Assembly: GCA_963755715.1 (NCBI GenBank)
Contig: CAVWLW010000030.1
Coordinates: forward strand, 1-64,000
Direction: 5' to 3'
From: an uncultured delta proteobacterium
Lineage (GTDB): Bacteria > Desulfobacterota > Binatia > UBA9968
Length of the DNA stretch: 64,000 nucleotides
This document shows, piece by piece, positions 7,283-50,927 of this stretch (its first letter is position 1; every line of letters starts with the position of its first letter). Under the pieces are notes generated by a model. It ran no database searches. It was not told the DNA's origin and saw only the letters and a list, made by a program, of their open reading frames with translations. Both the position numbers and the translations under genes were made by a program.

Positions 7283-7297
7283 GCAAGCTATATGCCA
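7283..7297 (-). promoter_or_regulatory. sigma54 -24/-12 promoter of the EPS operon
   Basis: Minus strand TGGCAT-ATAGC-TTGC(T), just upstream of the nusG-paralog start. Confidence 0.75.
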
Positions 7298-8777
7298 TGT
7301 CCCGAAGTACAGACTATGTCATGTAGAATCAAGAAAAAGACCTCTATGACAAAGCAATTCTTTTTGCAAGTGTAGCTTAATCACCTACAGTCGGATCCCA
7401 TGAACGTATCCCTTTTGAATACAAATTAGATTCAGAATTTTACACGGCGTGCTTATTCTGACCCGCCAATTATGGCCGATCAGCCAGTATTGTCATTTCA
7501 AACTTTGCTTTAGACGTTGTTTATCACTCCAGGTATAACTACTCAATACACTCAATTTTACGTTTCAATTAAATCAGCAATAAAAAATGCCAAACGTCAA
7601 AAAGTTTTCCCCGGCGATACTATCCGAGATCTTTTTTGATTTTTCTTTCTGCACAACCTAGGCCATTAAACTGTTCGCAACCTAAAGGCCATTGAAATAT
7701 TTTGCGTACCTCACGTTTAACTTCGAAGCGATGACTCTGTAAAATCTTCTTACAAATAGGAGGAGACATTAAAAGTTTCAAAAAAATGAATTAGTTTCGC
7801 TATTTGCCAGACGAGCGATTGTAACTTTGTTTTACACAAATTCGGGATTGCAAGACATTTGAGTTTCAGTAACACCGACGAAATTGAGTCTTGCGATAAA
7901 AGTCAGGGAGGTGCGATGCGCTCGCGCAAGTAAGTAGGGCGTTCGCCTACATTGCCTGTAGGAACTATCCGGCGTTTTTTCTTGGGAAATTTTGCGAATA
8001 TTATTTTTACCCAGACAATCGCAAACTCCAAATTTGCATATCGATTGCGCTTTAATCGGTGGCGCGGCCCATTGCTGGCGCAGCGCCGAGCGACCTATGA
8101 TCAGGCAATGCCAGGGAGCTTCAACGCCTAGCCCCGATATTTTGCTACTGCAAAGTCGTTCGGCAAGATTGTTCACTGCGCGCTGCACGACAACACTCAA
8201 TGTCTGGTCCCGCGGTCTGCGAACATCGTTATGATTTGTGCGGAAGTTCGGGGCGAACCGCGGTTCGTAGAAAGAGAGCGACTTAGTTCTCACGGGCTCG
8301 TGCACCAACACCGGCGCATCGTTTAGTCCATTCTGCATTCTCCTTTTGGTCCGTGCGTATATCGTGCATCGTGTGCGGAATAAAGTGTCAGGCCACAGAC
8401 GTAACGAACCGCTCCTCGGAGTTACACCAAATAATTTTGTTAAAGGCTTAAATTATATCGTGTAGCATATAAATTAGCTGCCTTCAAGGTAATTATTAGG
8501 AAGAAAACATAATTTTACTGGAAACTGGGTTAATTTCATTGTCATTTTAGCCAAATCTGACATTCAAAAGACAATTCTGACAAATCAGGCGGGAGATTTT
8601 TAAAAAAGAGTTACGACGAGAAAGTCGCCGGTCCGTGCGCGGCTAATCAAGCTGGAACTCTATCCCGCCGCGCCGGGCCCGTCGAAGGTTGGCAATATGG
8701 TTTCCGCGATTGGCAGATAAAAAACTGCCGACAGCTGATCGATCAGAGAAAAACTAAGTCGCGACGTCTCGCTGGCA

Positions 8778-9896
8778 TTGATTGCGATGCCTCGGTGCGA
8801 GGTCTGGATTCACGCTGGTGAAATCTTTGATCGCTTTGAAAATAACTTCGCAGTATCTCTGGCGCGCATGGTGTATATTTTTTGCGCTTTAATGTGGCTT
8901 AGGCTATATTCCTGCACTGTCGCAACAGTGCAGATCTCCCCGTTAATAATTGGTGTTTTATTCTTCCTTTCATCGCCCTCACTGGTTGGGGGCGAAATCA
9001 TCACGAGCGCCGACCAGCTTGAGGCCAGTGGTGTTAATTTCACCTGGTCCGACGTCAAGACCAAGACCGTTAAGATATTGCTCGAATACCAAGAGCCGGA
9101 CGGGAAATGGCGTCGCGCCAGCCTCGGCTCGGGCTTTGTCATTTCTCCGGATGGACTGTTTTTGACGGCTTATCACGTGATGAAGTTTTGTCTCGATAAA
9201 GTCAGGGCCAACCATGGATTATCCGTTAATCTCGACTGTTCGACAGCACAGAAGCCGCGCTATAAAGCGCTCGCGGGCGAGCGCGAGTTTGATATCCAAA
9301 TCATTTCTCACCTCAGTGAAACGGATTCTACCCACGGCAAAGAGATGCACACGCCCGATGAAATCATTAAGCAGCGCGACTTCGTCGTCGGCAGGCTCAA
9401 AAGCGGCGCGCCGACTCAGTTCGATTATTGGCAATTGCGTGACTTCGACGAAACCGCCATCGATCTCAGCCAAGCACGTGCCGATTTTCAGTTGACACCG
9501 TTGATGCCGCCCAAGCGAGTTTTTATCGTTGGCTTCCCCAAAGGCCGTGATTTCGTGATCTCTGAGGGTTTTTTGAATTTGACGGAAAAAAATCGGCGCG
9601 GCTATTTTGCCGCCAATTATAAAGTCTACACGGCGGCCTATCTCGAAAGCCAAGGTGTGGCCGCTGACACCCAGTGGGGCATGAACGTGGAAAATCACAT
9701 GAGCGGCGGACCGGTCGTTGACTCCTCAGGTTACGTCGTGGGCTTGGTCGTGAACGGGAATCGCGAAACGGCCGGCGTCGTGTCGATCGAGAATGTATTG
9801 GCGACTTTTTTTTCCCGAGCCGGCGGATCGACGGAATATCCCGCCCTGCTATTGAGACCCACCAAAACCCCTTTATATTTGAGAAACAGGCGTTAA
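8778..9896 (+). CDS. Trypsin-like (S1) serine protease, probably secreted; true start likely further downstream (~8890-8930)
   Basis: GSGFVISPDGLFLTAYHV (His), RDFVVG (Asp), ENHMSGGPV (Ser); hydrophobic N-terminus; no PDZ domain. Confidence 0.8.
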   Translation: MIAMPRCEVWIHAGEIFDRFENNFAVSLARMVYIFCALMWLRLYSCTVATVQISPLIIGVLFFLSSPSLVGGEIITSADQLEASGVNFTWSDVKTKTVKILLEYQEPDGKWRRASLGSGFVISPDGLFLTAYHVMKFCLDKVRANHGLSVNLDCSTAQKPRYKALAGEREFDIQIISHLSETDSTHGKEMHTPDEIIKQRDFVVGRLKSGAPTQFDYWQLRDFDETAIDLSQARADFQLTPLMPPKRVFIVGFPKGRDFVISEGFLNLTEKNRRGYFAANYKVYTAAYLESQGVAADTQWGMNVENHMSGGPVVDSSGYVVGLVVNGNRETAGVVSIENVLATFFSRAGGSTEYPALLLRPTKTPLYLRNRR

Positions 9897-9998
9897 TTGC
9901 TTGCGCAAACAGGTGGCTCGGGCGTCCTTGTCCGTGATATGCGCCAATCGGACCCTGACGAGCCGCGCCGCAATTGCGCGCTATCAATCCGGGTTATT

Positions 9999-10304
9999 TT
10001 AACCGACCACCGTGGGAAGCCAGCGACGGCTCAGCACATCCGCCAACGTCAATGACAAAAGAATCATCAGCCAGAAAAATCCAGCGCCAACAAAAACCCA
10101 GGTGAGGCGGCTGCTGTAGCGCACATGCATGAAAAAGAGTATCACCAGCAACGCCTTGCAGGCCGCGATCAGCATGGCCACAACCGTGTTTAGATTACCG
10201 CCGAGATCGATGAAGGCGGCCCCGGCCGTGGCCAAAGTCATCACCAATAAAGCGCCAAAAATGGCCGAATATAGTTTTACGGAAACGACGTGATCGGAAT
10301 TCAT
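9999..10304 (-). CDS. ctaF: Cytochrome c oxidase subunit IV
   Basis: Three TM helices, KALLVILFFMHVR motif; last gene of the cox cluster. Confidence 0.9.
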   Translation of the reverse strand: MNSDHVVSVKLYSAIFGALLVMTLATAGAAFIDLGGNLNTVVAMLIAACKALLVILFFMHVRYSSRLTWVFVGAGFFWLMILLSLTLADVLSRRWLPTVVG

Positions 10305-10951
10305 TGTAAATGCCTACCCACCAGATAAAGCAACGGAAACAGGAATATCCACACGATATCGACGAAATGCCAATAGAGCCCTACCAACTCGACCGGCGTG
10401 TTGTAGACCGAGGAAAAGCGTCCGCGACCGGCCTTGACGATCAAAGCAGTCAGCAGAGCCAATCCGATAATCATATGCAGCGCATGCATCCCGGTCATGG
10501 CAAAGTAGAAGGAAAAAAAGATTTCTGCCGCGCGCCCTAAGGGTCCGGCGTAGCTAAAATTGCTGCCGGGCACGAGGTGCTCCTCGATTTTGGCGTAATA
10601 CTCCGTGAATTTGATGCCGAGAAACAACGCGCCGAGCACGAGAGTCAAGATTAGGAACAGCACGAGCGGTTTACGCGCGCCGAGCTGCGCGCTGCGCACT
10701 GCCAGCGCCATGGTAAAGCTGCTGCCTATCAGCACCGCCGTATTGATGGTGCCGAGCCAGATGTCGAGATGATTGCTGGCGTCGGCGAAAGCTTCCGGAT
10801 ACGTGGAACGGTAGATTGTGTACCCTAAAAACATGCCGCCGAAGAACATCACCTCCGTCGCCAGAAAAACCCACATGCCGAGCCACGAAGCTTCGTGCTG
10901 CTGCTCGGCGTCGTCGAATTGATGGGCGTGAACGATGCTTGAATCAGACAT
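10301..10951 (-). CDS. ctaE: Cytochrome c oxidase subunit III
   Basis: [38 protein letters not shown] at 10951. Confidence 0.93.
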
Positions 10952-50116: not shown

Positions 50117-50187
50117 TGGCTCATAGCGAGCGCACACTGTGGGGAGAAGTTTTTGAATTTACCAGCCCATCGGCGCTGAATTAGGGC

Positions 50188-50502
50188 TCAATTGCGCGAT
50201 CCAGTAATTCTGAACAGCTCGCGTTTGGACGCCTGCTGCAAAAGCCCGGATACTTGCTGTGACCATGAATGAAAATCGCCATTCGCTGTTACTTTTTGGA
50301 TTTGCGTTTCGAGCGCGCCGAGATCCTCCGCTTCCTGCTCGAACAGCAAATCCGGCGCGCCGATCGAGCCAAAATGCGTGCGCATGATTCTTGGCTTGCT
50401 CCCGCCGGCTTCTTCAACCCATTTGAGAAGCTTCATGAGCTTGCCTTCGACCTCATCGGTTTTTCCGGGCAATGTGTGAAAACTCAATCGCGATAAAAAC
50501 AC
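50188..50502 (-). CDS. Hypothetical small alpha/beta protein
   Basis: GGAGGG SD, GTG start, 104 aa, directly downstream of the DUF883 gene. Confidence 0.7.
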   Translation of the reverse strand: MFLSRLSFHTLPGKTDEVEGKLMKLLKWVEEAGGSKPRIMRTHFGSIGAPDLLFEQEAEDLGALETQIQKVTANGDFHSWSQQVSGLLQQASKRELFRITGSRN

Positions 50503-50535
50503 GACCTAAGCCCTCCAATAAAACAAGATTGAATA

Positions 50536-50856
50536 TTAAAACTGTTCTTTGTCCAGACAGCGACTCCACACAAGAAAACCCACGGCCGCGCCGGTCAGGA
50601 CACCTAACGTTATCCACGGCCTCGCCTGGACGTAAGAGATCGCTACATCCGCTCCATGTCGGGCTTCTTTCAAAATATCTTCCTTCTGAATGAGCTGATC
50701 TCTTATCGACTGTAAGGTTCGGCGCACTTGTCCGCGTAACGAGGACAAGCCGTCATCCGCCTGCTCGGCCGTGGCTTTCATTAACTCTTCCACGTCTTCC
50801 GTCAGCGTTTTGAGATTAGATAACAGCCTTTGGCGCGCAATTTCGGCTCGGGTCAT
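50536..50856 (-). CDS. DUF883 (ElaB/YqjD) family tail-anchored protein
   Basis: LKTLTEDVEELMKATA..YVQARPW followed by a C-terminal TM. Confidence 0.85.
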   Translation of the reverse strand: MTRAEIARQRLLSNLKTLTEDVEELMKATAEQADDGLSSLRGQVRRTLQSIRDQLIQKEDILKEARHGADVAISYVQARPWITLGVLTGAAVGFLVWSRCLDKEQF

Positions 50857-50912
50857 ATAAATTCTCCCGCATCTAAACTTCACGACCGATTATGGTATGG
50901 TTAGGTTTTAAA

Positions 50913-50927
50913 GCAAGTTATGTGCCG
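50913..50927 (-). promoter_or_regulatory. sigma54 promoter of the DUF883 unit
   Basis: Minus strand CGGCAC-ATAAC-TTGC(T). Confidence 0.7.

Follow-up and report, generated by a model that had tools for sequence, protein, structure and literature searches.

The window analysed here, the first 64,000 nt of contig CAVWLW010000030.1 from an uncultured delta proteobacterium of the class Binatia (G000:C30:1-64000; G000 is this genome, and other G numbers denote relatives from the same genus), appears to hold a conserved sigma-54 island in which stress-protection genes would be kept under activator control by a local NtrC-type regulator together with further activators. We hold this reading with moderate confidence. 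The evidence supports the sites identified in the island as genuine sigma-54 promoters that are conserved across the genus. Judged by the enhancer evidence, the local activator would directly control part of the island, comprising four promoters in G000 and more in relatives, and the rest probably answers to paralogous or other activators; the signal (stress, oxygen or redox) and the actual transcription starts are what we infer. The G000 assembly comprises 7.41 Mb in 76 contigs with 56% G+C (completeness 93.6%, contamination 4.2%). Genes were assigned from Pfam and NCBIfam profiles, and conservation was searched in 31 same-genus genomes, G000 counted among them.

Sigma-54 promoters in the window and in related genomes

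Eight exact matches to TGGCAY-N5-TTGC are present in the window (7283-, 23948-, 25024+, 29651+, 34197+, 36408+, 41265+ and 49011+), all of which had been listed at these coordinates and strands in a first-pass annotation that also estimated well under one exact site by chance. In 100 dinucleotide-preserving shuffles of the window, from which the chance expectation was taken, the mean number of exact sites was 0.26, and none of the 100 shuffles reached eight. The sigma-54 holoenzyme requires a fixed spacing, with the GG and GC elements exactly 10 bp apart, and N5 was the only spacer enriched genome-wide: it gave 122 matches, 102 of them outside crude gene calls, compared to 16-40 matches with 1-11 outside gene calls for each of N1-N4 and N6-N10. 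This comparison of intergenic and coding hits, a kind of check that the first-pass annotation had proposed, came out in favour of genuine sigma-54 promoters. The sites lie between genes and face the adjacent gene, as had been described, with start codons 13-84 nt downstream of the motif at the 10 exact and TGGTAY sites, and neither an exact nor a one-mismatch site was detected in the window beyond position 50927, in agreement with the reported lack of sites in the 51.6-64 kb block. Of the start codons, ATG 49039 is located just 13 nt past the -12 element of 49011+ and ATG 7266 just 16 nt past that of 7283-; provided that these are the true starts, the corresponding mRNAs would have no leader, or almost none. 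A single rpoN is encoded in the genome (Sigma54_DBD, 6.9e-63), with the RpoN box readable in the translation, alongside 31 strong Sigma54_activat matches, one of them inside the window.

With up to one mismatch the window contains 16 matches compared to 9.7 expected, and near matches are therefore not acceptable on count alone. The variant TGGTAY-N5-TTGC is enriched genome-wide (35 matches, 25 of them intergenic, vs 11-17 and 3-5 at three other spacings), which makes 44959- and 48863- credible. No genome-wide enrichment at N5 over three other spacings was found for CGGCAY or for TGGCGY (89 matches, 11 intergenic, vs 75-99 and 13-14), so that 40006-, 44111- and 50913- need support from elsewhere. 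Related genomes provide it. The site 40006- (TGGCGTGAAGTTTGC) has a near-identical counterpart, TGGCGTGATGTTTGC, upstream of the same Holin-X gene pair in G018; 50913- (CGGCACATAACTTGC) is backed by GGGCACGTAACTTGC ahead of DUF883 in G018, the motif at this place being GGGCAC-N5-TTGC in both G018 and G021, with a site at 3/3 DUF883 loci; and homologues of the 260-amino-acid (aa) protein encoded behind 44111- carry an exact site in nine other loci and a one-mismatch site in G011. Altogether, the credible promoters of the window number at least 13 by these comparisons: eight exact sites, two TGGTAY sites and three conserved near matches. Five of the six near matches proposed in the first-pass annotation are thereby retained. 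The sixth, 46508+ (GGGAACAACGCTTGC), is left unsupported as a promoter, with two mismatches and no site upstream of AAA_33 relatives in other phyla.

The relatives of the AAA_33 protein come from distant phyla, the best matches, at 57% and 54% identity, being Candidatus Binatia metagenome-assembled genomes (MAGs). The MAG contig with the 54% identical gene (L003) holds four exact sigma-54 motifs within 15.7 kb, and across the 80 loci of AAA_33 relatives 17 exact or TGGTAY motifs were counted in 1.2 Mb. It may be that dense sigma-54 wiring is not limited to this genus.

Conservation upstream of orthologues, likewise proposed as a check, was counted for sites on the gene strand with at most one mismatch and with GG and GC obligatory. 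Among the activator genes, group A has an exact site in 7/7 loci, 38-100 nt upstream. A second activator group, 59-62% identical to the island activator and found in 10 of the genomes searched, has TGGC(C/T)T at -123 to -129 in 7/10; its loci without a gene-strand site (G019, G005 and G013), and also G008, have an exact divergent site. Ku orthologues (at least 54% identity) carry the site in 11/13 loci; of the two misses, one offers only 326 nt of upstream sequence, and in the other, G018, an exact site lies 1.7 kb upstream. The second Ku paralogue has it in 1/14 (two partial loci left out). For the hemerythrin the count is 13/17, with the site 41-61 nt upstream (3/20 loci left out for 45% identity, for stops or a contig end, or as belonging to G005), and for the 260-aa protein 11/14, nine of them exact (one contig-start locus left out). 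The TGGTAY site of the peroxiredoxin (Prx) recurs in 3/4 loci, the site of the short-chain dehydrogenase (SDR) operon in 5/8 (one locus left out), and that of superoxide dismutase (SOD) in 6/18 overall and in 5/6 of those with at least 81% identity (one contig-end locus left out). The activator and SOD counts take in rows of the unpublished genome G005, on which no conclusion rests.

A compact syntenic island is kept in G018 (activator 88% identical), in the order activator, divergent sucAB, CBS, Ku, LigD, Holin-X pair, Prx, PaaAC, kinase, SOD, divergent PsiE and DUF883, with sigma-54 sites at the activator, sucA, SOD, PsiE, Prx, DUF883 and the Holin-X cluster. The 34197+ promoter and its enhancer (see below) are both conserved there, and the divergent SOD/PsiE-side promoter is conserved in G018, G012 and G019. 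Moreover, the gene set is found together in G011 (C509), G019 (C12 and C20) and G044 (C15). Just upstream of the SOD promoter, a block TTCTnAATTyTGGmGCA is conserved in six genomes (window 48925-48950; loci L121-L129); in G000 it reads TGGCACATATCGAGC, a -24-like element without the -12 TTGC.

Compared to the rest of the genome, the window holds the densest cluster of the 157 exact and TGGTAY sites: starting from 23948, nine sites fall within 26 kb and ten within 45 kb, the next-best places holding five and seven. At the genome mean, the Poisson probability of at least ten sites in one 26-kb window is 4e-10. A blastp comparison of the 154 first genes downstream of sigma-54 sites with the window proteins detected just six paralogues elsewhere.

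The local activator and its candidate enhancer

The activator is a complete REC-AAA+-HTH_8 protein (Response_reg, 2.8e-25; Sigma54_activat, 7.5e-68; HTH_8, 6.7e-13) with GESGVGK at residue 171 and GAFTGA at residue 218 of the translation. Its highest NCBIfam matches are AtoC, NtrC and ZraR, and it stays below every equivalog cut-off of that collection (AtoC, NtrC, ZraR, NtrX, GlrR and others), the best being AtoC with 434 bits vs 714. These profile matches mark it as a generic member of the NtrC family. The kinase encoded at 45126-46235 is AtoS-like, again below cut-off, and is kept within the island in G018 at 60% identity; it is a candidate partner of the activator, a pairing that we infer. 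A 60-61% identical activator homologue is located divergently beside CBS-Ku in G013 and G019. Elsewhere in G000 (G000:C63:84021-90282), a second small cluster with two exact sigma-54 promoters encodes a receiver-less paralogue of the activator, a paralogue of PaaAC (68% identical) and USP proteins in tandem. The receiver-less paralogue has 316 aa, is 57% identical to the island activator and occurs in at least 12 other genus genomes searched.

Alignment of seven group-A activator promoters revealed two conserved palindromes 60-150 nt upstream of the -24 element, reading TGTCCYR-N4-YRGGACA and TGTCCY-N6-GMGACA, both of which fit TGTC-N10-GACA. A symmetrised matrix was derived from the 12 sites of the six other genomes alone and then run on G000, where the two activator palindromes scored 22.3 and 23.0 and were the top two matches in the 7.4 Mb genome. 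At a score of at least 18 there are seven matches genome-wide, five of them within 300 nt upstream of a sigma-54 site and four in the window, namely 24025 and 24056 (activator), 34033 (before 34197+) and 48897 (between 48863- and 49011+). Lowering the score to at least 14 gives 25 matches, eight of which are upstream of sigma-54 sites vs about 0.16 expected, these stretches representing 0.64% of the genome. All three enhancers of the window are accompanied, at a distance of 31-84 bp, by a weaker second site. Outside the window, enhancer and promoter are combined at about six loci (C65:36036-, C57:124798-, C51:109276+, C67:100217-, C29:54366+ and C57:73770-), with genes for PG_binding_1 and DUF2071 proteins at C67:100217-, Spy/ZraP-like Metal_resist and PLD proteins at C29:54366+, and a hemerythrin at C57:73770-. 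Position and co-occurrence with the activator gene suggest that the palindromes are bound by the local activator.

Furthermore, the enhancer recurs around activator genes of relatives. In G004, the 80 kb around a 65% identical activator contain 11 matrix matches of at least 12, compared to about 0.64 expected from the genome-wide rate of G000; eight of the 11 adjoin sigma-54 sites, and six to seven promoter regions around the activator are marked. Genes behind these sites include a Dps/ferritin-BON-hemerythrin operon, DUF202, a Holin-X cluster, the 260-aa homologue, PLD, a glycogen debranching enzyme and PG_binding_1, and the PLD, PG-binding and hemerythrin loci carry enhancer and promoter in G000 as in G004. 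In G018 the enhancer is also found at Prx (19.1, 35 nt upstream of the TGGTAY site) and at the SDR operon (15.4). Weaker matches are located 108-133 nt upstream of the Ku promoter in G020, G004 and G023 (14.7, 9.8 and 9.4), and the hemerythrin promoters of G011, G016 and G043 have in common a 16.6 match at -174. On these matches, the activator-enhancer pair is tied to this gene set across the genus, and individual sites turn over.

The activator enhancer of G000 is parted from the sucA promoter by about 850 bp (23993-24891) with small open reading frames (ORFs) that lack a family match. G018 is without this insert; there the activator and sucA promoters are divergent, and the enhancer is common to both within 200 bp, about 90 nt from the sucA promoter.

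Several other motifs were tried. For the exact inverted repeat GTCC-N8-GGAC the genome shows no enrichment (69 matches vs 45-87 at other spacings), and TGTCC-N7-GCRAC was dropped as circular, since it had been derived from the two sites that it then found. A strict composite of perfect palindrome and promoter, searched in five relatives, detected activator promoters alone, in 3/5 genomes. By k-mer enrichment against intergenic DNA and other sigma-54 upstream regions, CACATA/ACATAG was found in 6/13 vs 6/147 regions (p = 6e-5), which is marginal over 2080 words, and it was not used. The word CACATAG/GCATAG recurs upstream of 29651+, 34197+, 44959-, 48863-, 36408+, 46508+ and 25024+ and, at the CBS-Ku promoter, is conserved in G000 and G001; possibly it belongs to a second type of enhancer, with a signal that is marginal after multiple-test correction.

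Gene content, neighbouring loci and occurrence in soil

The gene types named in the first-pass annotation were largely reproduced by the profiles (Ku, LigD, DUF883, Holin-X/YqjE-like, Zn-ADH, CBS, AAA_33, 1-Cys peroxiredoxin, SOD and HtrA), except that no USP gene is present on the contig and that PfpI is represented by a 51-residue remnant (40850-41002). Of the 13 matches to the Usp family in the genome none is on this contig; two USP genes elsewhere have exact sites (C50:108552- and C35:46161-). Most sites precede stress-protection genes, as had been claimed, but 7283- and 25024+ do not: the NusG-like target of the former belongs to polysaccharide export, and sucAB, behind the latter, is not a stress gene either.

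Features of the window. Positions refer to the whole 64,000-nt stretch.
Feature	Position	Strand	Basis
Sigma-54 promoter 7283-7297 and NusG-like gene (two frames), polysaccharide-export cluster	6731..7297	-	exact motif, Pfam/NCBIfam; separate unit
NtrC-type enhancer-binding protein	22524..23879	-	Pfam
Activator's own sigma-54 promoter (putative autoregulation)	23948..23962	-	exact motif, conserved
Candidate enhancer of activator promoter: palindromes 24025-24042 and 24056-24073, centres 31 bp apart	24025..24073	.	conserved in 7 genomes
Sigma-54 promoter 25024-25038, 2-oxoglutarate dehydrogenase E1 (two frames) and E2 (sucAB)	25024..29318	+	exact motif, Pfam
Sigma-54 promoter 29651-29665, CBS protein, Ku, LigD (three frames)	29651..33842	+	exact motif, Pfam
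Candidate enhancer pair 34033-34050/34117-34134, promoter 34197-34211, Zn-ADH N-terminal fragment, SDR, hemerythrin	34033..36283	+	matrix scores 18.5/14.7, Pfam
Sigma-54 promoter 36408-36422, second hemerythrin-domain protein, 94-aa ORF	36408..37186	+	exact motif, Pfam
Near-match promoter TGGCGTGAAGTTTGC 40006-40020, leader of about 480 nt, Holin-X/YqjE-like protein, 119-aa ORF	38770..40020	-	Pfam, G018 counterpart
Sigma-54 promoter 41265-41279, HtrA-type protease with PDZ domain	41265..42477	+	exact motif, Pfam
Near-match promoter TGGCGCATTGATTGC 44111-44125, 260-aa protein (no family match), PaaA/PaaC-like ferritin-fold protein	42544..44125	-	Pfam, conservation
TGGTAC promoter 44959-44973, 1-Cys peroxiredoxin (Prx)	44318..44973	-	enriched class, Pfam
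Soluble PAS-HisKA-HATPase histidine kinase	45126..46235	-	Pfam
Doubtful site GGGAACAACGCTTGC 46508-46522, 521-aa AAA_33 protein	46508..48151	+	two mismatches
TGGTAT promoter 48863-48877, Fe/Mn SOD	48205..48877	-	enriched class, Pfam
Candidate enhancer between divergent SOD and PsiE-side promoters: 48897-48914 (18.3), 48931-48948 (11.0)	48897..48948	.	matrix
Sigma-54 promoter 49011-49025, two overlapping ORFs without family match (49039-49552), PsiE	49011..50116	+	exact motif, Pfam/NCBIfam
Near-match promoter CGGCACATAACTTGC 50913-50927, DUF883 (ElaB/YqjD-type) protein, 104-aa ORF	50188..50927	-	Pfam, conservation

Directly downstream of the activator lies a respiratory cluster (10301-22371, minus strand) coding for a multihaem cytochrome c, a QrcB-like molybdopterin-type subunit, 4Fe-4S, NrfD, SCO1, COX1 and COX3 proteins; the cluster is of the type alternative complex III plus oxidase. 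The Zn-ADH N-terminal fragment (115 aa, 34242-34589) is still the first gene behind 34197+. No convincing ORF and no Rfam match was found in the leader 39521-40005, the Rfam search being empty across the whole window; the gap matching this leader measures 1.5 kb in G018, from which gene loss may have occurred at 39521-40005. A C-terminal fragment of a luciferase-like monooxygenase and the DJ-1/PfpI fragment are remnants within 40234-41002.

Several ORFs are split between frames, comprising sucA (25123-27575), LigD (31323-33842), the NusG-like gene (6731-7266) and rpoN (G000:C34:25694-27180). Compared to the window, contigs from RNA libraries show 1-base deletions at 32084 and 32125, both in LigD, and a 2-base insertion at 49330; the split ORFs may reflect assembly or strain indels rather than dead genes.

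The stretch 41001-51000 is present in soil metagenomes of 13 studies. When RNA-library contigs from four runs of four studies were compared with 32001-52000, pieces with 0-6 differences over 170-616 nt were found, which cover the SDR, both hemerythrins, an FAD oxidoreductase, PaaAC, the kinase, SOD, the DUF883 pair and HtrA. Such pieces are in keeping with expression in soil, these runs being assembled contigs for which starts, ends and strand are not given and DNA carry-over is possible. Bins 40005-40671 and 51344-52000 are uncovered in all four RNA runs and are uninformative.

Interpretation and comparison with known systems

In the mechanism that we propose, the NtrC-type response regulator would activate its own sigma-54 promoter from the two tandem TGTC-N10-GACA palindromes. 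A PAS histidine kinase, perhaps the orphan one of the island, would presumably phosphorylate it, and on its enhancers it would use ATP to open sigma-54 promoter complexes. Predicted enhancers mark its own gene (possibly also sucAB), the ADH'-SDR-hemerythrin operon, the divergent SOD/PsiE-side pair and about six loci elsewhere. The remaining island promoters would be served by paralogous or other activators among the approximately 31 of the genome, or would have sites that have diverged past recognition. Under such strict control would stand CBS-Ku-LigD, two hemerythrins, the dehydrogenase operon, HtrA, Prx, SOD, PsiE, DUF883/YqjE-type proteins and the 260-aa protein.

A number of observations weigh against this reading. 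The other 9-10 window promoters have best matrix scores of -2.4 to 5.7, the random 95th percentile being 5.7; neither 7283- nor, in the G000 matrix scan, 29651+ in front of CBS-Ku-LigD has an enhancer match. With the enhancer at just three promoter regions, comprising four promoters, one local activator driving all of them is unlikely. A de novo motif search in 14 upstream regions, with widths 10-18 and one site per sequence, found AT-rich patterns alone. At a given promoter the enhancer is unstable across genomes: at SOD it scores weakly in G018 and is missing from four other genomes, and the Ku enhancer is confined to the G020/G004/G023 lineage. The promoters, too, are unevenly kept, with HtrA as the exception to the conservation reported above (1/9 orthologues, G000 alone, and 1/10 paralogues) and with SOD homologues of 57-72% identity mostly without a site (1/12 loci, in G010, has one). 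The split of rpoN between two frames points to assembly indels, which may blur short sites as well, and the nature of the RNA contigs restricts what they can contribute.

Moreover, the motif is not confined to stress genes. For 88 of the 147 non-window sites a first gene supported by coding score was available; after one duplicate had been dropped, 87 were scanned and matched 127 Pfam families, none with more than two members. These targets are ordinary, including glutamine synthetase (glnA), an ammonium transporter (amtB), KdpA, AcrB, glycosyltransferases and MlaC, and this broad repertoire implies that sigma-54 is not a stress-only sigma in G000, even if the window remains its densest cluster. 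The genome also contains a candidate RpoS-like group-2 sigma factor (293 bits, below the cut-off of 378.7), so that sigma-54 is not shown to replace a stress sigma. The proposal of the first-pass annotation that this lineage runs the programme through sigma-54 and a locally encoded enhancer-binding protein is supported in part, by the activator's own promoter and the recurring, conserved enhancer, and has to be narrowed in view of the three marked regions, the ordinary targets and the RpoS-like candidate.

Since the enhancer is found at only three promoter regions of the window and the genome has about 31 activators, the island might be a mosaic of real promoters, each operon with a different activator and signal, grouped by history or gene flux, with the local activator controlling itself and two or three operons. 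The receiver-less 57% identical paralogue in the C63 cluster with its PaaAC paralogue and USP genes would fit such a mosaic, as would the 59-62% identical activator group of 10 genomes with its members beside CBS-Ku in G013 and G019. We regard it as somewhat unlikely: G004 has the enhancer at six to seven promoter regions around its activator, G018 has it also at Prx and the SDR operon, and the gene set stays together in G011, G019 and G044. Another candidate explanation is an oxygen or hypoxia regulon, a counterpart of NmpRSTU from Myxococcus xanthus, where oxygen would be sensed by a PAS or haem kinase and its handling adjusted by the activator through hemerythrins, SOD, Prx and the adjacent alternative-complex-III and cytochrome oxidase genes. 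The enhancer-marked operons encode hemerythrins, SOD and a dehydrogenase, the activator is directly upstream of the multihaem cytochrome, QrcB-like, NrfD, SCO1, COX1 and COX3 genes, and among the members of the NmpR regulon are a CBS protein, a USP, a hemerythrin and a cbb3 oxidase (PMC11841059). A binding site unlike that described for NmpR, together with the Dps, BON, PLD and glycogen debranching genes of G004, which suit starvation or desiccation better, makes this an unlikely account.

That the TGTC-N10-GACA palindromes are bound by another factor, for example a repressor or a nucleoid protein, we consider very improbable. Their assignment to the activator is by position and co-occurrence, which leaves room for such a factor; the classic NtrC-type layout, with a tandem pair 31 bp apart and 60-150 nt upstream in 7/7 genomes, and the enrichment upstream of sigma-54 sites speak against it. 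A chance or compositional artefact, by which the motif matches would not be promoters, is a practically negligible explanation: it would apply to the unsupported site 46508+ alone and is already refuted by the shuffles, the spacing control, intergenic placement, orientation and genus-wide conservation.

Beyond the conserved island under a local regulator and further activators, a broader proposal can be made more tentatively, and we give it less than even credence: the genus may have moved its general stress output (Dps, BON/OsmY, ElaB/YqjD-YqjE, SOD, Prx, HtrA, PsiE, glycogen enzymes and, uniquely, Ku-LigD) onto sigma-54, run by a small family of NtrC-type paralogues comprising the island activator, the 59-62% identical group and the receiver-less form. 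Sigma-54 promoters are silent without an activator, and a sigma-54 stress regulon would therefore act as an all-or-none switch rather than by graded sigma competition. If this is true, neither stress protection nor double-strand-break repair would run at all before a kinase signal comes in. Survival of drying, starvation or oxygen swings in soil would then rest on a different design, which would include the first sigma-54-gated non-homologous end-joining system. The sigma-54 promoter at Ku-LigD, with 11/13 loci, offers a concrete, testable case of how bacterial end joining is turned on. Although the organism is uncultured, the predicted enhancer and its activator are sufficiently delimited to be tested in a surrogate host, and the lineage is widespread enough for co-expression tests on raw metatranscriptome reads.

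General stress regulons of model bacteria, namely those of RpoS (Escherichia coli), SigB (Bacillus) and EcfG (Alphaproteobacteria), depend on a sigma-70-family factor and -35/-10 promoters, and Ku/LigD is under stress sigmas in some bacteria. Their likeness to the system described here is in output only (Dps, OsmY/BON, ElaB/YqjD-YqjE, SOD, PsiE and glycogen genes); the island has -24/-12 promoters, which require an ATPase activator, and the system is not a member of that class. DosR of Mycobacterium tuberculosis is a NarL-type regulator acting at sigma-70-type promoters; a CBS protein is shared and so, going by the label in the first-pass annotation, may be an Rv2004c-like protein (AAA_33), whereas no USP gene is present on the contig and the only regulator of the island is NtrC-type. 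The sigma-54 stress modules of E. coli, PspF-psp, ZraSR-zraP, RtcR-rtcBA and NorR-norVW, each cover one or two operons. As in the island, an enhancer-binding protein and sigma-54 gate a stress response there, and a Spy/ZraP-like gene is among the enhancer-marked loci of G000; the island differs by its more than 13 promoters, including those of end joining and antioxidant enzymes.

The first-pass annotation had known of no such system. A published analogue is NmpRSTU of M. xanthus, in which the NtrC-like NmpR acts through paired GCGCA-N5-TGCGC sites at seven sigma-54 promoters in the low-oxygen response and targets its own operon, a CBS protein, a USP, HemN-hemerythrin and a cbb3 oxidase (PMC11841059). 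Compared by description only, the two systems have in common an NtrC-like regulator of a soil bacterium, paired palindromes (putative enhancers in the island), an activator that targets its own operon (predicted for the island) and the combination of CBS protein, hemerythrin and cytochrome oxidase. The sites differ, with pairs 14-15 bp apart for NmpR and TGTC-N10-GACA pairs about 13 bp apart (31 bp centre to centre) in the island, and the NmpR regulon, as far as the available part of that report extends, lacks Ku-LigD, SOD, peroxiredoxin, Dps, DUF883 and HtrA (PMC11841059). In the same organism Nla28 is a sigma-54 activator of starvation and stress genes (PMC9765219). Nla28 and Nla6 are autoregulated enhancer-binding proteins, as is predicted for the island activator, and resemble it in their stress- or dormancy-linked genes, sigma-54 promoters and, probably, several activators per programme. 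Within the accessible part of that account, the Nla28 half-site CT(C/G)CG(C/G)AG occurs as direct repeats, most Nla28 targets belong to regulation, metabolism and the envelope, and it acts in a developmental cascade with no compact island (PMC9765219). Among the papers that could be searched, none was found to describe a Ku-LigD, SOD, Prx or Dps regulon that depends on sigma-54. Altogether, sigma-54 stress regulons of the NmpR/Nla type are known already, and the most novel element of the island is the conserved sigma-54 promoter before the end-joining genes.

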